In this document: piece after piece, positions 11,725-23,119 of the stretch
Numbering within the stretch: the stretch's first letter is position 1
Layout of the letters: every line of letters starts with the position of its first letter
Source: Escherichia phage fDHCT2
Direction: 5' to 3' (one strand)
Sequence record: OR427838.1
DNA: 64,000 nucleotides
The notes under the pieces: generated by a model
The model's database searches: none
The model's input: only the letters and a program-made list of their open reading frames with translations
Told to the model about the DNA's origin: nothing
Translations under genes and position numbers: made by a program

Positions 11725-11754
11725 ATAGTACCACATCCTTGTGGTGTTGTAAAC
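11725..11754 (-). promoter_or_regulatory. T4-type early promoter (minus strand)
   Basis: Minus strand: GTTTAC-18 bp-TACTAT; spacer contains inverted repeat ccaca/tgtgg. Confidence 0.5.
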
Positions 11755-13877
11755 TACATTTTGAATTTATTTGATAAAGAAGAGATATCCAAAGACGCTG
11801 CAAGGATTTCCATAGCTTCGTTGCTTTCAGAAACGGATTCATTAACCAAGAATTGTCTAAATCCATCCATCAGGCGAACTTCACCAGTTTCCATCAAATG
11901 GTCACCATCGTAAACAGATTCGCTGAGCTCTGAAAGAGGTGTTACGGTAGCTTCCATAAGGTATTTGTGAGATACTCTATCATTCATGGCAAAAGCCGCT
12001 ACTTTATCAACCTTCAACAATAATCCGCGCGGAAGGATAATTTCTGCTTCTTCGGCATATTCTGTAAGGTCACCAGGAGCGATAACTTTAACTGCTTCAG
12101 CACCTCGAATAACCATACCAATTTCAGCAATTCTATCCGCAGGACCTTCAGGTGCAATTGGATTACCGAACTCGTCTTCTTCCCATTCTACCTCTTCGTC
12201 ATCGACTTCACCCACATCAGATGAACTACCGCTAGCCAATTTAAACAACTCATCAGCGGAGGATAAAGAACCTTCGCCGCCAACAAAAACGGCTTGGTTG
12301 TCGAGGGCCATATAATTTTTACCAAATTCACCAAAGATGTTAGGCTTTAATGAGGCTGACACAAAGTTCTTAAAGTAAAATGTTTTGTTATCGATATTAT
12401 GGCGCAGAATTTTGTATGGCAAATCCTGACCACGATACAAAATAGTACCCTTAGGAAGTTTAATACCCTTAGTAAATGCTGAGTCTAAATCCTTAATCAA
12501 TTTAATAGCCGTTGTATTGTTTTCGGATTCAGGTTTACCTAAAAGGAATAAGTTCATAGGAGCATATTCAGCCGCGCAATATTCAATAATAGCATTGCTT
12601 TCGTCTTTGGTTAGGTCCTTAGGTTTAATGAGCTCGCCTGAATAAGCATATGCATCACTAATAGAATCGTTAACCAGTTTATAAACGGCTTCCATAGCGA
12701 AAGCAATTCGAGAGGCCTTTTCTGAAGGGGAACCCTTAAAACGGGTACTCAGGTTATTAACAATTTTCTTAATAATATCCAGACTATTGGTTGTATTGAT
12801 TTGCGAAAGACCACTTAAAAGTCTATCGACTTCTGTATTAAAAAATGCCATATTATTAGAGTAAATTTCAAACCCTTGTTTATCTCTATTAGCATAATTT
12901 AGTTTAAATTTACTATCAGTCATTAAAGCGTGTGTGAGAGCAATAGTGTATCTAAAGTTGGCAAGGTCCTCGCTCTTAGATTTAAACTGAGAAGCCTGGC
13001 GCATTTTAGTAATAGCACCTTTTTTAAAGTTCTGGCTAATCTGTTCAATACCTTCATTCTCAGGGCCTTCAGCCGTGTGAACCGGTACAGAAGCTTCAAA
13101 CTCGTTATAAACCTGCAATTCTTTAGGGGACAAAGTTTCAGGCTCAGCAGTAGAATACTGCGCGGCTGCTGCCATACGACGGGAAATCTTAGTACGGGTA
13201 ATGACAGACTTATCAGTACGTTTCTCTTCAACTTGTGCAATAGATGCCGCTACTGCTTCGACCTTACTTACGGCCTGGCCGGTTTTCTTAGAAACATACA
13301 CTTCGCCAACTTTAGACTCAACTTTAGTATAAAGATCGGCATTAATTTCAGGCATACCCTTGATATCTTCAATATTAGCACCACGACGTACTAAAAGAAC
13401 GTAGGTATGTTTTCCGCTGAATTGGAACATGTCGTCAACAACTTTAAACTTACCACCGGTACGAGCCATAGCCAAACGAGCTAATACGCGCTGAACGGTA
13501 GGGCCTTTACCTTTCATTTTCTTAGTAGGGAAACGGAATAAAACCGCGTCCATTTTAAGTTTGTTTATTTGTTCATATATGGTATCGAAAATGGTGTTCA
13601 GTGTACCGAGTGGATCGGTACCCAAACCGCCCTTGAGTTCTGCCGGAGCGCCTTTAGCAGATAAACTCATTAAGATAACATGGACGTACTTATCGCCCGC
13701 CTTAACCATCTTAATAGCGTCGCCTTCAGACGCATAAGATACCATACGTGCTACTAAATTGTCATTACCAGGAGCATGTACCGCAAAAATCTGCGGTACG
13801 CCTGAGCCAGGTTTAAGATTTGTTACTGGGTAATTTTTTTTATCGCTTTTATCAAAAACTTCGTTTAAATTTTCCAT
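11754..13877 (-). CDS. Alt-like ADP-ribosyltransferase paralog (707 aa), predicted capsid-packaged
   Basis: N-terminal about 230 aa nearly identical to the two upstream copies; C-terminal ART-like motifs YRGQ, SAS, EAEIILPRG; unique central and extreme C-terminal regions. Confidence 0.75.
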   Translation of the reverse strand: MENLNEVFDKSDKKNYPVTNLKPGSGVPQIFAVHAPGNDNLVARMVSYASEGDAIKMVKAGDKYVHVILMSLSAKGAPAELKGGLGTDPLGTLNTIFDTIYEQINKLKMDAVLFRFPTKKMKGKGPTVQRVLARLAMARTGGKFKVVDDMFQFSGKHTYVLLVRRGANIEDIKGMPEINADLYTKVESKVGEVYVSKKTGQAVSKVEAVAASIAQVEEKRTDKSVITRTKISRRMAAAAQYSTAEPETLSPKELQVYNEFEASVPVHTAEGPENEGIEQISQNFKKGAITKMRQASQFKSKSEDLANFRYTIALTHALMTDSKFKLNYANRDKQGFEIYSNNMAFFNTEVDRLLSGLSQINTTNSLDIIKKIVNNLSTRFKGSPSEKASRIAFAMEAVYKLVNDSISDAYAYSGELIKPKDLTKDESNAIIEYCAAEYAPMNLFLLGKPESENNTTAIKLIKDLDSAFTKGIKLPKGTILYRGQDLPYKILRHNIDNKTFYFKNFVSASLKPNIFGEFGKNYMALDNQAVFVGGEGSLSSADELFKLASGSSSDVGEVDDEEVEWEEDEFGNPIAPEGPADRIAEIGMVIRGAEAVKVIAPGDLTEYAEEAEIILPRGLLLKVDKVAAFAMNDRVSHKYLMEATVTPLSELSESVYDGDHLMETGEVRLMDGFRQFLVNESVSESNEAMEILAASLDISSLSNKFKM

Positions 13878-13880
13878 TAT

Positions 13881-15929
13881 TTACCCTTGGGTGAATTTTT
13901 CTGGGGTTTCGTCAAAATTAATACATGAAGCTAAAATAGGCATTATATCCACCTTGGTCGATTTGACGAATGAATCAAAAGACACAGGGTTGTCGGTCTC
14001 TGTTTCTACGCCTTGGTAAACAACCAATTCGCCGGTTTCCATCAATGCATCACCATCGTAGATAACCGCATTTTCTGCTAGTTGGTCTGTGGTCTGGATA
14101 TCAGCTTCCAATAATTTGGTGTTGTAGTTTCCTTTATATGAGGCATCTGTAATTTTAGTAATCTTAACAGTAGTTCCACGTGGAAGAATAACCTCTTGTT
14201 CTGTTGGAGAACCTGACAATTCACCAGGCACAATTACGTTAATAGAGTCTGCACCGGAAATTTTCCAGCCGACGTTCATCATTGTATTTTCGGAACTCGT
14301 CAGCATACTTGGAAGAACAATTTCATTATCGCCTTGGAAAGATGTCCCAACGCGATAGTCCTGATGAACTGCGGCCATTGCGACGTTTGATACCCAGCCA
14401 CCAAAGATAATCGGCTTAAGGGACGTTGATACATAGTTCCTGAAATAAAACAATTTTGAGTGTTTGATTTTATCAAAAGTGTTAACATTTAAATATTGAC
14501 CACGCCAAAGTGTAATATCAGGTGGCAATTTATGGCCAATTTCAAATGCCGCGTCCATATCATTAATTACTTCAATTACACGCTGACTATCAATGAATTC
14601 TGCATCCTCTTCATAATAATTACCCAACAAATAATTATTAACATCGGTATAATATTGGCCGCAATAAGAAGAAATAGCCTCACGCTGCTCATACTCAAAT
14701 CGATTATCGCTATAACTGGCTGTAAAATGCATAACACTTTCTGACGCTTCATTAGCAAAGTCGGTAACAGCAGCACTTATACGTTGAGCATACTCTTGTT
14801 CCCAAAGCTCTGCTGCATAAGTGGCTGCATCCAGGTTAGGAGGAGCCTCATTCATTTTTCTTTCGATAAATGCAGCTTTGCGAAGGTTAAGAACCTCTGC
14901 ACATGATTCGGCAAAAATCTGCATCTGCTTCATACTGCCGACAGGAGCACGTTTAAGTTCACGATGCATACGGTTAAAAATTGGGTCAGAGTCTTCGACC
15001 CGAATTTCTTCTTTCCAAACACCGTTTGCTCGCATAGCCATATCTGCCGCGCGCATACGCTCCATAGTATTCGTTTCAGAAGGTTGAATAAAAATTTCTA
15101 GTTCTTCATAATCATCGATAAGTTCCGCTGTTGCTGGGGCACTAAATTTTGATGCCTCTGCATCAATCTCATTCCAACCTTCCGGAACTTCATCTCGAGG
15201 AGAATACTGGGCTGCGGCTACAGCACGCCTAGAAATCTTGGTAGTGGTAATAACAGCCTTATCCGTACGTTTTTCTTCGACTGCCGCTATACTAGCAGAT
15301 AGTGCTTCTATTTTGGTTACTGATTGGCCTGTTTTCTTGGATACATAAACCTCACCAACTTTAGACTCAACCTTAGTGTAAAGGTCTGCATCAATTTCAG
15401 GCATACCTTTTATGTCCTCAATATTAGCTTGTTTACGAACCAGTAAAACGTATGTATGTTTGCCTGTAAATTGATACATATCATCGACAACTTTAAACTT
15501 GCCGCCAGTACGAGCCATCGCCAATCGTGCCAATACACGTTGAACAGTAGGACCCTTACCTTTCATTTTCTTGGTAGGGAACCGGAAAAGAACTGCATCC
15601 ATTTTAAGTTTGTTTACTTGTTCGTATACAGTATCAAAAATGGTATTCAGCGTACCAAGTGGGTCAGAACCTAACCCGCCTTTCAGCTCGGCTGGGGTAC
15701 CCTTAGCAGACAAACTCATCAAAATAACATGAACATATTTGTCGCCAGGCTTAACCATTTTAATAGCGTCTCCTTGAGACGCATAAGATACCATACGAGC
15801 CACCAGATTATCATTACCTGGTGCTTGGATAGAGAAAATCTGTGGAACACTGGAACCCGGTTTAAGATTTGTTACTGGATAGTTTTTAGCGGAATCACTA
15901 TCAAAAACCTCGTTTAAATTTTCCATCAT
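13881..15929 (-). CDS. Alt-like ADP-ribosyltransferase paralog (682 aa)
   Basis: Shares N-terminus with neighbours; motifs WRGQ, STS, EQEVILPRG; C-terminal tail ..PEKFTQG shared with alt. Confidence 0.8.
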   Translation of the reverse strand: MMENLNEVFDSDSAKNYPVTNLKPGSSVPQIFSIQAPGNDNLVARMVSYASQGDAIKMVKPGDKYVHVILMSLSAKGTPAELKGGLGSDPLGTLNTIFDTVYEQVNKLKMDAVLFRFPTKKMKGKGPTVQRVLARLAMARTGGKFKVVDDMYQFTGKHTYVLLVRKQANIEDIKGMPEIDADLYTKVESKVGEVYVSKKTGQSVTKIEALSASIAAVEEKRTDKAVITTTKISRRAVAAAQYSPRDEVPEGWNEIDAEASKFSAPATAELIDDYEELEIFIQPSETNTMERMRAADMAMRANGVWKEEIRVEDSDPIFNRMHRELKRAPVGSMKQMQIFAESCAEVLNLRKAAFIERKMNEAPPNLDAATYAAELWEQEYAQRISAAVTDFANEASESVMHFTASYSDNRFEYEQREAISSYCGQYYTDVNNYLLGNYYEEDAEFIDSQRVIEVINDMDAAFEIGHKLPPDITLWRGQYLNVNTFDKIKHSKLFYFRNYVSTSLKPIIFGGWVSNVAMAAVHQDYRVGTSFQGDNEIVLPSMLTSSENTMMNVGWKISGADSINVIVPGELSGSPTEQEVILPRGTTVKITKITDASYKGNYNTKLLEADIQTTDQLAENAVIYDGDALMETGELVVYQGVETETDNPVSFDSFVKSTKVDIMPILASCINFDETPEKFTQG

Positions 15930-18014
15930 TTACCCTTGGATGAATTTTTCTGGGATGTCATAGAGGTCTATGCATGAAGCCAAAAGAGGCAATACATCAA
16001 ACCGTGTAGATTTAACAAATGAATCAAAAGATACAGGGCTTTCGGAAGTATCGAAGTCATCTTGATATACGACCAACTCGCCGGTTTCCATTAGTACGTC
16101 ACCATCATATACCACAGATTCTTGAAGCTCATCTGTTGTCATAACTTCAGCTTGGATGAGTTTTGTATTACTAGATGTTGTTCCATCATTATTAGAAGAA
16201 TCTGTTATTTTATTAACTTTGACCATTAATCCACGCGGTAGAATAACTTCGGCTTCAGTTGCTATTCCGAGATTTCCTGGATATACGACATTAACTTTAT
16301 GAGCCCCATCAATAGCCCATCCTATTTGAACTTTAACATAATCAGGATTTTCTTTATATGCTCTTATTTCATTAGGATTAATAGTTATTCCTTCTTCATT
16401 TTTATCGACTGTCAATTCATTGCGAACTTCCGGTTCTAAAAGACCAATACCTGCGTGGGTAACACCAAAACGTCCAAAAATGATAGGAGTTAAAGAAGTA
16501 GATACAAAATTTCTGAAATAGAACACTTTATTTTTAACTAGTGCTTCGTATATAGGAGCAGTCATACTCTGAGCACGATAAACTGTGATGCCCTCTGGTA
16601 TACGGTCGCCATTTTCAAAAGCAGAATCCAAATTATTAACCGCGGATTCGATATCTTTTTCGCTCATAACCTCATAGTTCTGAGGATTATAACGTCCTAA
16701 AAGAAGATTATTTATGTCTGTATATCCTGAACCACAATATTCTCTGATGCCGCGCTTTTGTGATGGGGTATATTTAGAGCCCTCACGAGCAATAGTAATA
16801 TCGACCATAATACCGCCACCCACACCAGCAAAACTATATACACGTTTTTTAATGAACTTGGTCTTGGCGGCTTTCCACTTCGCATCGGTCAATTCATTCC
16901 AGAGGTCGTCAGGTTGGCCTTTACGAGTTTTGTTATGCCAGGCCAGCCATTCACCTTTGTATTCTTCGAAAACGGTATTAATAGCAGAGGCATATTTTTC
17001 TAGAGCTTTAACAGATGTCAAAGGTTCGTTTTTGATGGCCGTAAGAATTTTATCTTTAATTTTCTCTTGGATTTCACCTATACCGTGAAGAGGAAACATT
17101 TTATAATCGTAATGCAATTCTTCAGCCGTGCCTTCAGCCACTATATTAGCAACCTTATTTTTAGCCGCAGGAGAATTGTTATTAGTAACCATTTCCTGAG
17201 CCTCAGGGATTAATGGAACTGTTGCAGGTTTATTAAAATCTGCTGCAGTAGCTTCATATTTCTTAAACAATTCACTTTCATTACGATAAGATTCCAATGA
17301 TTGGCTTGCTGCAATGGCGCGCCTAGAAATCTTAGTCTTGGTTATAACCATTTTATCAGTGCGACGTTCTTCAACCTTAGCAATACTGCTGGCAATAGCA
17401 GTTTCTTTAGTAACCTGCACACCTTCTTTTTTGGAAATATAAACTTCACCGACATCAGAATCTACCTTAGTATACAATTCAGCATTAATTCCAGGCATAC
17501 CTTTGATATCTTCGATATCAGCTTGTTTACGAACTACTAAGATGTAAGTATGTTTACCGGTAAATTGGTACATAGCCGGAACCACTTTAAAACGTCCACC
17601 GGTTTTCTGTGCTACCAAACGTTGGATAATCCGTTGGACAATAGGTCCTTGTCCTTTCATTTTCTTGGTAGGAAAACGGAACATCACGGCATCCATACGA
17701 AGCTTTTTAACTTGGTCATAAACCACATCAAAAATAGTATTAATCGCATCTACAGGAGTAGGGCCAAGGCCACCTTTAAGTTCGGCTGGAGTACCTTTAG
17801 CCGATAAGCTCATTAAAATTACATGAGCATATTTATCGCCTAATTTAACTTGTTTGATTGCGTCGCCTTCAGAAGCATAAGAAACCATACGTGCTACTAA
17901 TTGGGACTCTACGCCACCAATCTTCCAAATCTGCGGTACTTTAAGTTTAGGGTTCAAGTTTACTGTAGGCAGTGTGCCTTCGGACTCAAACACTTCATTT
18001 AATTGTTCGGTCAT
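15930..18014 (-). CDS. alt: Alt ADP-ribosyltransferase (closest to T4 Alt), 694 aa
   Basis: Full-length similarity to recalled T4 Alt (SQSLESYR.., SKYTPSQKRGIREYCGSGYTDINN, YRAQ, FVSTSL, EAEVILPRGLMVKVNKITD, ..KFIQG). Confidence 0.85.
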   Translation of the reverse strand: MTEQLNEVFESEGTLPTVNLNPKLKVPQIWKIGGVESQLVARMVSYASEGDAIKQVKLGDKYAHVILMSLSAKGTPAELKGGLGPTPVDAINTIFDVVYDQVKKLRMDAVMFRFPTKKMKGQGPIVQRIIQRLVAQKTGGRFKVVPAMYQFTGKHTYILVVRKQADIEDIKGMPGINAELYTKVDSDVGEVYISKKEGVQVTKETAIASSIAKVEERRTDKMVITKTKISRRAIAASQSLESYRNESELFKKYEATAADFNKPATVPLIPEAQEMVTNNNSPAAKNKVANIVAEGTAEELHYDYKMFPLHGIGEIQEKIKDKILTAIKNEPLTSVKALEKYASAINTVFEEYKGEWLAWHNKTRKGQPDDLWNELTDAKWKAAKTKFIKKRVYSFAGVGGGIMVDITIAREGSKYTPSQKRGIREYCGSGYTDINNLLLGRYNPQNYEVMSEKDIESAVNNLDSAFENGDRIPEGITVYRAQSMTAPIYEALVKNKVFYFRNFVSTSLTPIIFGRFGVTHAGIGLLEPEVRNELTVDKNEEGITINPNEIRAYKENPDYVKVQIGWAIDGAHKVNVVYPGNLGIATEAEVILPRGLMVKVNKITDSSNNDGTTSSNTKLIQAEVMTTDELQESVVYDGDVLMETGELVVYQDDFDTSESPVSFDSFVKSTRFDVLPLLASCIDLYDIPEKFIQG

Positions 18015-18252: not shown

Positions 18253-19758
18253 TTATAGTCCAGTTTGAGACCAATCGCCAAATACATCTTCAAATGTATC
18301 AGCTTCTGTTTTATCGAAACGCCAACCTTTAATAATTGGAAGGAAAATACCTACAGTATCAGTACGTCCTTTAGAATGAACCCAACCATTACATTCGCAG
18401 TCAGCAATACGACCAATCAATTTACCTTCACGGGCTTGTTTCATAAGAAGTTCACGGTCTAAATCAGGACGGTCTTCTAATGGAATCAATACCTTTTTAC
18501 CTGATTTATCTTTCTTATGGGTGGTATCTTTAAAGCCTGAGCCACAGTCACTTGTAATTCGACGACAACGTGATACCAATTCGACACCGCCAAGTTTGTT
18601 AGGGTCCTTCGAGTGTTCATAATAACCCACTACTTCTAAAGCGATATCGATTACTTCTTTGAACTTGATAAGATTCTTAGAACGGCGGTTTTCCCAGTAG
18701 GAGTCCATGTTCTTAAGGATAATGCCTTCCAGGCCCTGGTCGACATATTTCTTATAAACGACTTTAGCTTCGTCAAGATTATTAACCCATTGCGTTTCTA
18801 TAGGCTCGGCACGTGTAAAACCTTCAGCCATTTGTACTAATGCCGCTAAACGAACATCGTATTTTTGACCTTTAATTTTGCCTTCAGAATAAACTTCATC
18901 CAGTGGAACAAAGTCCCATGCCTGTAATACCATACCATCAGCTTCAGCTGGAGTAATAGTTCCTTGAAGAGCTTTATTAGCCAAACCATTTGAAGTAGAA
19001 CGGTCGGCGACTGTCTGGAATTCCTTGGCTTTACTTAATTCCGGAAGTTCTTCATCAAACATACTAAACAAATCATTAGATGCTTTCGGTTCAACCTTAG
19101 GCGTGTGGTAAACTAATTCGCCATCAATCATAACACCATTAGGATGGCGCTGACGAGCTTCTTCAGTCATTTTAATAAGTTCGGCTGCAAGCTTAGTAAG
19201 CCCTTGATATTCATTACCACCGCGAGTAAGGAATGTTACCCCATCGTTACGAACTTCAGCAAAACAACGGGCACCGTCAGCTTTTAATTGAGCGAACGCC
19301 GGCCATTTAATATTTTTCTTAATTAGAGCTTCGTCATAAGAACTAGCCAACATTTGAGGTTGTTCAGGAATTAAACCTTTCCAAACCTTGTTAGCAATAG
19401 AAATCGATGCACCACATTCAAGGTCGCGCATCATTACACGACGTAGTACCTCAGCGTCTGGACCCTTGGCATCGGCGATAATTTGGGCAAGTTCTTCAAT
19501 AGCAGCATTACCTGTAATCTTACGGGTTGCTAGTGTGAACTCAGCGAAATCAAGAAGGTCTTCAAGTGTAATCATACCAAAGGATTGAGACGTAAATCCA
19601 GGTTCTGGCCACTTTTTGATGCCGTAGTTCAAACGACGGGTATAAGCCATACGATATACACGTTTCAGAAGCTCATTATCCTTTTCACGGGCAATAATAG
19701 CTTCTTTAGCTTTAGTAGAATCAATAGAAGCAATTTCGTTTAAAATATCTAAAATCAT
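18253..19758 (-). CDS. 30: ATP-dependent DNA ligase (gp30)
   Basis: 501 aa; strong similarity to recalled T4 DNA ligase incl. adenylation motif FAQLKADGARCF and C-terminal ..ECNGW..DGRTD..FEDVFGD. Confidence 0.95.
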   Translation of the reverse strand: MILDILNEIASIDSTKAKEAIIAREKDNELLKRVYRMAYTRRLNYGIKKWPEPGFTSQSFGMITLEDLLDFAEFTLATRKITGNAAIEELAQIIADAKGPDAEVLRRVMMRDLECGASISIANKVWKGLIPEQPQMLASSYDEALIKKNIKWPAFAQLKADGARCFAEVRNDGVTFLTRGGNEYQGLTKLAAELIKMTEEARQRHPNGVMIDGELVYHTPKVEPKASNDLFSMFDEELPELSKAKEFQTVADRSTSNGLANKALQGTITPAEADGMVLQAWDFVPLDEVYSEGKIKGQKYDVRLAALVQMAEGFTRAEPIETQWVNNLDEAKVVYKKYVDQGLEGIILKNMDSYWENRRSKNLIKFKEVIDIALEVVGYYEHSKDPNKLGGVELVSRCRRITSDCGSGFKDTTHKKDKSGKKVLIPLEDRPDLDRELLMKQAREGKLIGRIADCECNGWVHSKGRTDTVGIFLPIIKGWRFDKTEADTFEDVFGDWSQTGL

Positions 19759-20018
19759 TTTACCGTCCTTACAGTTTGTGTACTTCTATTATAAGCTACT
19801 TCATCTAAAAGCTCATTTAAAGTTTTGTGATACGATATAATACGCTTATCTTTAATATCGTATTCAGTAACATACATAAATCCACGCCGAACACATTGGG
19901 TAAAGATATCTTCATCTTTGGCTTGGAAATATACAGGATTCAATCGAAGGAAATGTCTAACGTTTCCATAATCGTGGGATTTAGGCGTTCCATCAGTAAT
20001 AGTATGAACTACAAACAT
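19755..20018 (-). CDS. Hypothetical protein (about 86 aa)
   Basis: Start at internal ATG 20018 with GAGG SD, directly after stop of the upstream gene; longer ORF start would overlap by 59 nt. Confidence 0.5.
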   Translation of the reverse strand: MFVVHTITDGTPKSHDYGNVRHFLRLNPVYFQAKDEDIFTQCVRRGFMYVTEYDIKDKRIISYHKTLNELLDEVAYNRSTQTVRTVK

Positions 20019-20019
20019 A

Positions 20020-20658
20020 TTAACCTCGGGCAATCCATTCAACTGCTGCATTATTACGAAGGGATTCGATAGCTGCAATATCGTCCCATGAATTAACCTT
20101 TACGGCTAAATTAGGTTTAAAGTCGCGTTCACCACGGGCTAACCAATAAACTTGGATATCCATGAGAATATTAGATGCGGCATCACAGTGGTGAGCCAAA
20201 TCATCGACATAAAACTTAATGCGTTTGCCGTATGTATTTTTAGCTCTTATGAACAGGTCTTCTTTTGATTCTGAATGACCACACATCAGAATCTCCTTGA
20301 ATGCGCCAGGGAACAAAGCATTCAAATTGAATTGTCTATTCAGCAGGGCGTCAATTGAGTCGCCTAGCGCAGTCACGGCTACAAAATCGAAGTCTTTTTT
20401 GAGCTTGTTGATGTGTTTTAATGCGTCCATGTAAGGAGACAGATAACGAATAAAATCCGACTGATTATATTTCTCAATTAAACGTGCGCCTAATTCGTCG
20501 TCACAATTAAACAGTTCGCCTGGAGATAAGAAACGTTCGTCCTGAATCATATTCAAAATATGTTCTAAAGGCAAATTATATTTCTGTGCGAAATAAGGCA
20601 AGCCGGATTGCCAACTTAAACACACTCCATCGATATCTGTTAAGATAACTGGTTTCAT
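20020..20658 (-). CDS. HAD-superfamily hydrolase-like protein (212 aa)
   Basis: N-terminal motif I LTDIDGV (DxDx[TV]), later VAVTA and FYVDDLAHH aspartates typical of HAD phosphatases/nucleotidases. Confidence 0.6.
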   Translation of the reverse strand: MKPVILTDIDGVCLSWQSGLPYFAQKYNLPLEHILNMIQDERFLSPGELFNCDDELGARLIEKYNQSDFIRYLSPYMDALKHINKLKKDFDFVAVTALGDSIDALLNRQFNLNALFPGAFKEILMCGHSESKEDLFIRAKNTYGKRIKFYVDDLAHHCDAASNILMDIQVYWLARGERDFKPNLAVKVNSWDDIAAIESLRNNAAVEWIARG

Positions 20659-21113
20659 AATAAATCTCTCAATTTGTTTAGGATGTCGATAAACTCTTTT
20701 TCAGTTAGTATTGTATCACATTCTGTAAGGTGGCTTGCCATTGAATGCTTTAAAACCTTACCTTTAGTGGCTTGTAACGCATCGCGAAATCCTTTGTTTT
20801 GGAGCGCTGCTTCAAAATATGCATTTGTATACAACTCTTTCCATGCTGCAGAGTATCTTGAAAAGGGAATTCCAAGCCAGAAAAGCGTCCCACGGTCCGC
20901 AGCTCTTGCATAAGCTCTTCCACTTTGCTGGGCGGCCAATCCGGACATCCCAAATATACGTTTTTGTTGTTCAACATTTTTCACCTTACACCCTTGGAGG
21001 AATCCTTCGAGTCCACCAAATTGGATACCATCCATAACGAAAGGCCATTTAGCAAAGTTACTTAATGCGCATGATGGCCACGGGAAATTGCTTCTGATTT
21101 CTAACTCAGACAT
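20655..21113 (-). CDS. NADAR/YbiA-like domain protein (about 152 aa), putative ADP-ribose-processing enzyme
   Basis: ALSNFAKWPFVMDGIQFGGLEGFLQGCKV resembles the YbiA/NADAR core as recalled (approximate) (..FSNFA.WP..DG..-..E..Q..K.); start at Met50 of the long ORF, overlapping upstream stop by 8 nt. Confidence 0.5.
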   Translation of the reverse strand: MSELEIRSNFPWPSCALSNFAKWPFVMDGIQFGGLEGFLQGCKVKNVEQQKRIFGMSGLAAQQSGRAYARAADRGTLFWLGIPFSRYSAAWKELYTNAYFEAALQNKGFRDALQATKGKVLKHSMASHLTECDTILTEKEFIDILNKLRDLL

Positions 21114-21318
21114 CTTTGACACTGATAATCTTGGTTGCATACCACATGCCATGGTCTGGCAATCTTTCTTTAATTGACTGCCCGCGATATGTTTTTCGCA
21201 TAACAACAGTTTTAATAGCATCTTCATCGCAAGCATATGGCGGTGATAAATCAATAACACGATAAGTCACTTCAACCAGTTCCAAGCCAAACAACTTTTT
21301 AAATAATTTCTTAATCAT
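21106..21318 (-). CDS. Hypothetical protein (70 aa), paralog of 21328-21540
   Basis: MIKKLFKKLFGLELVEVTYRV..ISVKDV aligns with adjacent copy along its full length. Confidence 0.55.
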   Translation of the reverse strand: MIKKLFKKLFGLELVEVTYRVIDLSPPYACDEDAIKTVVMRKTYRGQSIKERLPDHGMWYATKIISVKDV

Positions 21319-21327
21319 GAAGATTCC

Positions 21328-21540
21328 TTAAATATCTTTGACACTGATAATCTCTACATCAGCCCAATGACCGTAACCAGGTAGACGGTCTTTAATAGAT
21401 AATCCACCGTCAGACTTCAGCATTTTAATTGTTTTAGTATACGGTTCATCTTGTGGATGCACAGGAGATAAATCAGTTACACGATAAGTCACTTCGACCA
21501 TTTCCGTACCTAATAATTTCTGAACCAGTTTCTTAAACAT
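21328..21540 (-). CDS. Hypothetical protein (70 aa), paralog of 21106-21318
   Basis: MFKKLVQKLLGTEMVEVTYRV..ISVKDI; tandem duplicate. Confidence 0.55.
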   Translation of the reverse strand: MFKKLVQKLLGTEMVEVTYRVTDLSPVHPQDEPYTKTIKMLKSDGGLSIKDRLPGYGHWADVEIISVKDI

Positions 21541-22907: not shown

Positions 22908-22934
22908 CTTTTTTTAAGATTTAGAAACAAAAAT

Positions 22935-22952
22935 GGGACTCCGAAGAGTCCC
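22935..22952 (-). terminator. UUCG-tetraloop intrinsic terminator
   Basis: gggactccgaagagtccc; on minus RNA followed by AUUUUUGUUUC; right after stop of the small ORF 22958-23119. Confidence 0.65.
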
Positions 22953-22957
22953 ATAAC

Positions 22958-23119
22958 TTATGCCTGAGGCTTACCAAAGCAAGCAGCATCTGCACGCAAT
23001 ACTGCACGAGCACGAGCTTGAAGCTTATCAACTACCTGATTGATACGCTTGTTGGACGCACGCTTGTAACCAGCGCGTTTAGAGGTACCGTCAACTACTT
23101 TAACTTCTTTCTTAGCCAT
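22958..23119 (-). CDS. Small basic protein (53 aa)
   Basis: ORF below the track cutoff, read by hand: MAKKEVKVVDGTSKRAGYKRASNKRINQVVDKLQARARAVLRADAACFGKPQA; followed by terminator. Confidence 0.4.
   Translation of the reverse strand: MAKKEVKVVDGTSKRAGYKRASNKRINQVVDKLQARARAVLRADAACFGKPQA

Follow-up and report, generated by a model that had tools for sequence, protein, structure and literature searches.

We analysed a window of 64,000 nucleotides from Escherichia phage fDHCT2 (sequence record OR427838.1), in which two adjoining open reading frames (ORFs) on the minus strand, at 20020-20658 and 20655-21113, encode a HAD-like and a NADAR/YbiA-like protein, respectively. A sequence-only reading of this region had proposed that the two genes, together with three ADP-ribosyltransferase genes nearby, form a module that deals with ADP-ribosylation chemistry, possibly in defence against host toxins. 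Our results indicate that the second ORF, gene 30.3, is an orthologue of adfN, that the first, gene 30.2, encodes a predicted HAD phosphomonoesterase, and that the two are neighbours by gene order, with no module shown. We place the probability of this overall reading at roughly 0.87. Both ORFs and the peptide blocks quoted from them were found on the minus strand at the positions originally given, and the profile matches described below make it clear that they are not chance ORFs. The order of genes on this strand, namely the alt genes, alt.1, 30, 30.1, 30.2, 30.3, 30.4 and later rIII, 31 and cd, is the same in T4 and JS10. Because of this agreement, the ORFs at 20020-20658 and 20655-21113 are genes 30.2 and 30.3, respectively.

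The family to which gp30.3 belongs has been published and characterised experimentally, so that the protein is already known and nothing new in kind. Bioinformatic work in 2023 had recognised adfN as a NADAR gene of phages, and its functional characterisation followed in 2024-2025. T4 gp30.3, since renamed AdfN, is necessary and sufficient for the resistance of T-even phages to DarTG1; the purified protein strips ADP-ribose from DNA, and its E36A and K43A variants are inactive (Johannesman et al., Nat Commun 2025;16:1598). In the same study, a frameshift that deletes the last 15 residues was found to inactivate AdfN of phage RB69, which explains the DarTG1 sensitivity of RB69, and ectopic AdfN alone brought back RB69 plaquing (Nat Commun 2025;16:1598). 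In vitro, T4 gp30.3 removes ADP-ribose that is attached to guanine in DNA, whereas it does not act on ADP-ribose attached to thymine (Toxins 2024;16:208, PMC11125620). An independent transposon screen, HIDEN-SEQ, showed that insertions in T4 30.3 were lost under DarTG1, with a log2 fold change of -7.25 and an adjusted p value of 0 (sheet "resampling_Control_vs_DarTG1", bioRxiv 10.1101/2025.11.20.689424). As shown for T4, AdfN is a small hydrolase with a single NADAR domain of the YbiA fold, and it cleaves the N-glycosidic linkage that joins ADP-ribose to guanine in DNA. Host DarT1 ADP-ribosylates replicating phage DNA, AdfN clears the adducts, and replication then goes on in hosts carrying DarTG1.

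Across its entire length of 152 amino acids, the window gp30.3 (20655-21113, minus strand) shared 88% identity with T4 gp30.3, with 18 differing residues and no insertions or deletions. It matched Pfam PF08010 (Phage_30_3) with an E value of 2e-65 and 219 bits, relative to a cut-off of 36, over profile positions 2-138 of 138, and it matched phrog_652 with an E value of 2e-50. Full-length homologues are mostly 145-160 amino acids long. The block ALSNFAKWPFVMDGIQFGGLEGFLQGCKV, from which the NADAR/YbiA-like call was originally made, corresponds to residues 16-44 of the 152-residue protein. An alignment of 42 family members, with identities down to 35%, was used to examine individual positions. 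Three residues were invariant in it, all encoded on the minus strand: the catalytic Glu36 (codon GAA, 21006-21008), the catalytic Lys43 (codon AAG, 20985-20987) and the last-strand His123 (codon CAT, 20745-20747). Loss of the conserved catalytic residues had been named beforehand as a result that would count against the call, and these residues proved to be present.

A direct sequence search of the PDB with gp30.3 gave no hit, and the same kind of search with gp30.2 gave only weak hits; therefore, profiles and structure prediction were needed. The AlphaFold2 model of gp30.3, built on the 42-member alignment, had a mean predicted local distance difference test score (pLDDT) of 94. When this model was compared with the PDB using Foldseek, the top three matches were YbiA (2b3w; E value of 2e-4 and template modelling (TM) score of 0.67), a NADAR protein of Phytophthora nicotianae (8bau) and a NADAR protein of Geobacter lovleyi (8bat). 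Beyond these three NADAR structures, all hits were at a probability of 0.02 or less. In the model, His123 stands directly after the predicted strand 120-122. The C-terminal helix, predicted at residues 138-151, is complete, and the protein aligns through the last residue of T4 AdfN. The gp30.3 family profile also found YbiA, at an E value of 0.016, over an SNFA...EGF.Q..K block, which is exactly the block that had been likened to the YbiA/NADAR core. Thus, the NADAR/YbiA-like call was borne out by the PF08010 match, by structural matches to NADAR proteins only and by this profile hit. A Pfam search gave no direct match of the window gp30.3 to PF08719 (NADAR) at an E value of 0.1 or below; a few family members (our homologues P0142 and P0212) carry both PF08719 and PF08010.

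On sequence grounds, the window gp30.3 is an orthologue of AdfN, with an activity that would correspond to that of the T4 protein. We make this assignment because the window protein has every feature that the published studies name as required, including the complete C-terminal helix. It resembles T4 AdfN in its length of 152 amino acids, in E36, K43 and H123, in its intact C-terminal helix and in its place between genes 30.4 and 30.2. With the DarG1/DarT1-associated NADAR of G. lovleyi (8bat) and E. coli YbiA (2b3w) it shares the same YbiA fold, at Foldseek probabilities of 0.98-1.00 and TM scores of 0.60-0.67, and an SNF...E..Q..K catalytic block. However, identity to these proteins is only 15-18%, histidine replaces aspartate or glutamate in the last strand, and gp30.3 has neither the N-terminal extension of DarG1 nor a partner toxin gene. 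Counter-defence against a DarT-type toxin, which had been suggested for this gene, has been shown experimentally for its T4 orthologue; for the window protein, the 88% identity, the intact catalytic residues and the intact C-terminus suggest the same role.

These data also bear on whether gp30.3 might instead be a housekeeping N-glycosidase of the YbiA type, acting in the detoxification of riboflavin intermediates, or might reverse the protein ADP-ribosylation carried out by Alt and Mod, in either case with no part in counter-defence. YbiA was the best structural match of the model, alt genes lie nearby, and the one match in NCBIfam, a weak one, was to the riboflavin N-glycosidase family TIGR02464 (E value of 0.09). 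The last-strand residue points the other way: it is His in phage gp30.3-type NADARs, Glu in YbiA and Asp in DarT1-linked NADARs (PMC11125620), and His123 is thus a mark of the phage gp30.3 subfamily. Furthermore, the phenotype of the T4 orthologue is strongly and directly specific to DarTG1 and is otherwise neutral. We consider a housekeeping or Alt-reversing function extremely unlikely, and we retain the assignment of gp30.3 as AdfN.

The start of gene 30.3 had been regarded as ambiguous, because a long ORF of 201 amino acids, beginning at GTG 21260, overlaps the upstream 70-amino acid gene. This long ORF does exist, as no stop interrupts the 51 codons that precede the ATG in the window. The ATG at 21111-21113 (minus strand) overlaps the end of gene 30.4 (ATGTCTGA), as in T4, and both the ATG and the N-terminus MSELEIRSNF are kept in T4, JS10 and 12 other relatives. 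An in-frame TAA is located four codons upstream of the ATG in 13 of these 14 relatives (T4, JS10 and 11 others), in the context attaTAAgtgtcaaagATG. At the equivalent place in the window (21123-21125, minus strand), TCA is found instead of TAA and the frame is open into gene 30.4. The long ORF is present, then, because a single TAA-to-TCA change removes the stop.

Translation from GTG 21260 would give a NADAR-like protein with an extra N-terminal domain, and the T4 gp30.3 construct described as residues 1-208 (PMC11125620), like the open frame itself, would favour such a product. However, the extension overlaps the conserved 30.4 family (phrog_2042) in a different frame, the upstream stop is found in nearly all relatives, T4 included, the Pfam and PHROG matches begin at the N-terminus defined by the ATG, and the homologues are mostly of the shorter length given above. 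An extended protein is therefore scarcely credible. The predicted start of gene 30.3 is ATG 21113 and the long ORF is accidental, which leaves the overlap noted in the sequence-only reading in place and removes the doubt that it raised. As a separate matter, the published designation "gp30.3; residues 1-208" is irreconcilable with the T4 reference, in which gp30.3 has 152 amino acids and an in-frame stop four codons upstream.

A further ORF, internal to gene 30.3 (20750-20977, minus strand), is the counterpart of 30.3', which is annotated in T4 as a 75-amino acid product of the +1 frame inside 30.3. Its frame is uninterrupted in the window and in the majority of close relatives. We rejected 30.3' as a real gene on the basis of a stop in JS10 and JS98, the lack of a start at the T4 position in several relatives and its absence from distant homologues; the counterpart in the window is unlikely to be a gene.

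Gene 30.2 (20020-20658, minus strand) encodes a protein of 212 amino acids, for which the motifs and the structural model predict a HAD-superfamily phosphatase with a C1-type helical cap. The protein matched phrog_420 with an E value of 2.4e-70, and homologues occur in at least 1447 phage records. The peptides LTDIDGV, VAVTA and FYVDDLAHH, on which the HAD call was based, are residues 6-12, 93-97 and 149-157. All four HAD motifs could be placed on the minus strand: motif I, Asp8-Ile-Asp10 (20629-20637), with the predicted nucleophile and general acid/base; motif II, Thr96 (20371-20373); motif III, Lys132 (20263-20265); and motif IV, Asp152-Asp153 (20200-20205), the predicted Mg2+ ligands. These positions were followed in alignments of 43 close homologues (39-86% identity) and 49 remote homologues (21-41% identity). 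Residues D8, D10, G11, K132, D152 and D153 were invariant in the close set, in which Thr96 was conserved in at least 90% of sequences. D8, D10 and K132 were still invariant in the remote set, and D153 was kept in at least 90% of it.

The AlphaFold2 model of gp30.2 (pLDDT 95) has a Rossmann-like core whose first strand is followed by an insertion of four helices (residues 16-65), which make up a C1-type cap. Foldseek returned 140 PDB matches at an E value of 0.001 or below, and the best 50 of these 140 were all of the HAD fold. By predicted fold and catalytic motifs, gp30.2 is a genuine HAD-superfamily enzyme, and the original HAD call held on both counts. In the proposed reaction, Asp8 would form a phospho-aspartyl intermediate with Asp10 as acid/base, Thr96 and Lys132 would bind the phosphate, and Asp152 and Asp153 would bind Mg2+. 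In established HAD enzymology, an aspartate two residues after the nucleophile, D10 in this case, denotes a phosphatase and not a dehalogenase.

The best relevant match of gp30.2 among PDB sequences was mouse cytosolic deoxyribonucleotidase (cdN, 2jao). In this alignment, D8 falls on the mutated nucleophile position and W16 falls on the Phe after motif I, a residue that presumably stacks on the base in cdN. Sixteen of the 49 remote homologues matched NT5C at an E value of 0.01 or below (best, 4.4e-8). A broad gp30.2 family profile had its best PDB matches in 3bwv (7e-4), Sdt1/SSM1 (0.002), mdN (0.002) and XMP phosphatase (0.008). Compared with the 5'(3')-deoxyribonucleotidases of the NT5C family (human and mouse cdN, mdN and S. 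epidermidis 3bwv), gp30.2 itself showed 13-17% identity and a sub-threshold score. We infer that a nucleoside monophosphate is the likeliest substrate, because the four-helix cap is most like that of the 5'(3')-deoxyribonucleotidases. The likeliest chemistry would be that of a Mg2+-dependent nucleoside-monophosphate phosphatase, with a chance of about one half.

Other sources added little on function. NCBIfam gave no match to gp30.2, long gp30.2 homologues (P0300, P0352, P0246, P0291 and others) contained no informative partner domain in a search for fusions, and we found no literature specific to gp30.2. A few GenBank records name its homologues "putative phosphatase", "5' nucleotidase" or "HAD-superfamily hydrolase". 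T5 Dmp, a deoxynucleoside-5'-monophosphatase, and the 3'-phosphatase domain of T4 PseT have the DxDG motif I and the HAD superfamily in common with gp30.2. A specific kinship with either of them was considered and rejected, as hhalign gave motif-level matches only, at probabilities of 2-8%.

Gene 30.2 is separated from the DNA ligase gene by gene 30.1 only, and gp30.2 might be pictured as a DNA-end 3'-phosphatase that works with the ligase, in the manner of the HAD domain of polynucleotide kinase-phosphatase (Pnkp). Profile comparison with T4 PseT aligned motif I only, at a probability of 7.5%, and the best sequence links of gp30.2 were to nucleotide monophosphatases. The model has a four-helix cap, unlike phosphatases of the Pnkp type, which have no such cap, and T-even phages already encode PseT. 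A role in the repair of DNA ends is thus unlikely, and nucleoside monophosphates remain the preferred candidate substrates. In T4, gene 30.2 tolerated insertions at 72 of 72 sites, was non-essential and neutral in M9 relative to LB, and had no phenotype in six HIDEN-SEQ conditions, namely RexAB, RnlAB, CBASS, DarTG1, DarTG2 and M9 (bioRxiv 10.1101/2025.11.20.689424).

The length of gp30.2 varies among these phages. T4 gp30.2 has 278 amino acids, roughly the last 66 of which form a tail with many Pro, Asn, Tyr and Trp residues, whereas the window and JS10 proteins have 212 amino acids and no tail, as seen when the 3' end of the window gene (20020-20100) is compared with that of T4 (L001, 7475-7740). 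The lengths of gp30.2 homologues range from 196 to 347 amino acids, so that the tail is an addition to the HAD core that varies among them. The gp30.2 of phage Ec2-ASingh (GenBank PQ561418.1) is 100% identical to that of the window.

We then considered the proposed module, in which NADAR, HAD and three Alt proteins would act together and the HAD enzyme would process the ADP-ribose or nucleotide products of the NADAR protein or of the phage transferases. The window does contain three full-length Alt-type ADP-ribosyltransferase genes in tandem on the minus strand (11754-13877, 13881-15929 and 15930-18014; PF03496, E values of 4e-17 to 8e-36), encoding paralogues of 707, 682 and 694 amino acids. 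The nearest of them ends 2 kb from gene 30.2, so that the genes lie within 2-3 kb of one another on one strand, in agreement with the distance first reported. The stop of 30.3 and the start of 30.2 overlap in ATGA (20655-20658, minus strand; ttattATGAaacc), a signature of translational coupling, and the same 4-nucleotide overlap is present in T4. Both the proximity and the overlap speak for a module.

In contrast, genetic data from T4 single out 30.3. Under DarTG1, T4 30.2 and alt were neutral in the HIDEN-SEQ data, with log2 fold changes of -0.12 and -0.01, respectively, and the only significantly depleted gene other than 30.3 was 30.4, located upstream of it, with a log2 fold change of -1.79 and an adjusted p value of 0.014 (bioRxiv 10.1101/2025.11.20.689424). 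The depletion of 30.4 is plausibly a polar effect on adfN, or it may reflect a real contribution of 30.4. The restoration of RB69 plaquing by ectopic AdfN alone, though RB69 has its own 30.2, likewise speaks against a joint function.

The adjacency of the NADAR and HAD genes is also lost in most other phage NADAR loci. Among 80 viral contigs with a gp30.3-type NADAR, approximately 58 had no 30.2 homologue within 5 kb. Such a homologue was found within 5 kb only in T-even-like NADAR loci, several of which have about 1 kb of inserted genes between the two. In Pectobacterium phage PM2 (L083, 4992-5432; L084, 4001-4648), the 30.2-30.1-ligase-alt.1-alt block is intact and the NADAR gene is located 59 kb away, beside a tRNA cluster. 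Therefore, within the Tevenvirinae, 30.2 has stayed linked to the ligase gene and the NADAR gene has changed its place on its own. The NADAR reaction yields free ADP-ribose and requires no phosphatase, and the substrates of Alt are host proteins, RNA polymerase among them, and not DNA. The adjacency of 30.3 and 30.2 thus reflects a conserved T-even gene order, the Alt genes lie 2 kb away with no functional tie, and a joint module, as suggested in the sequence-only reading, is not supported; we consider it very improbable.

Several points weigh against our overall assignment of 30.3 as adfN and 30.2 as an unlinked HAD phosphomonoesterase. The AdfN activity predicted for the window protein is carried over from T4, and the transposon data cover T4, one DarTG1 system and laboratory conditions. 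The ATGA overlap shows that 30.3 and 30.2 are co-expressed. The authors who characterised AdfN left open that another T-even factor may be needed for its full activity (Nat Commun 2025;16:1598), and an additional helper of this kind would also fit a module. For gp30.2, structure singles out no HAD subfamily, as dehalogenases, phosphoglycolate phosphatases and deoxyribonucleotidases score about equally. Moreover, gp30.2 falls below every Pfam HAD-family threshold, with NT5C (PF06941) at 12.9 bits relative to a cut-off of 24.8 (E value of 0.1). Of the Pfam matches that would have been anticipated for a NADAR and a HAD protein, PF08010 was found, but the direct PF08719 match and the Pfam HAD thresholds were not reached by the window proteins.

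The 1.7 kb around 30.2 and 30.3 shares approximately 95% nucleotide identity with Escherichia phages WG01, JS10 and JS98 (Tevenvirinae, Dhakavirus), and judged by this similarity the phage is a JS98/WG01-like (Dhakavirus-type) T-even phage. Genes 30.2 and 30.3 would represent two adjoining early accessory genes, transcribed from the minus strand in the order 30.4-30.3-30.2-30.1-30 (ligase). Directly downstream of 30.2 is gene 30.1 (DUF3045; 19755-20018, minus strand), followed by gene 30, which encodes DNA ligase (18253-19758, minus strand), both recognised by Pfam. The order 30.2-30.1-30 agrees with that of T4, JS10 and PM2.

Copy number differs in two places. There are three alt genes here, whereas JS10 has two (alta and altb) and T4 has one together with the remnants alt.-1 and alt.-2. 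Directly upstream of 30.3, gene 30.4 occurs twice in tandem in the window (21106-21318 and 21328-21540, minus strand; both phrog_2042), compared with one copy in T4 and JS10. Each encodes 70 amino acids, and the two are 57% identical. A strong terminator-like hairpin with a 9-bp stem, five GC pairs and a T-run (22933-22954, minus strand) follows a small gene at 22958-23119, and the transcription unit that covers 30.4-30.3-30.2-30.1-30 may begin there. A scan for sigma-70-like promoters gave 9 sites, compared with 15.3 in shuffled sequence, and we claim no promoter.

These results show that a real counter-defence gene was correctly recovered by reading sequence alone. What is gained for adfN is a further intact orthologue from a JS98-like phage, with the start of its gene fixed at ATG 21113. 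Gene 30.3 can be annotated as adfN, in place of the "hypothetical protein" that nearly all related GenBank records still list, and gp30.2 as a HAD-superfamily, NT5C-like phosphatase. Conservation of gp30.2 among phages is very wide; its gene is always found by the DNA ligase gene, and the active site is intact. It is doubtful that gp30.2 is a second and independent anti-defence or nucleotide-sanitising phosphatase beside adfN. If this were true, its target might be a toxic or signalling nucleotide made by a defence system that E. coli K-12 lacks, or its task might be to repair damaged DNA ends so that the ligase can act on them.

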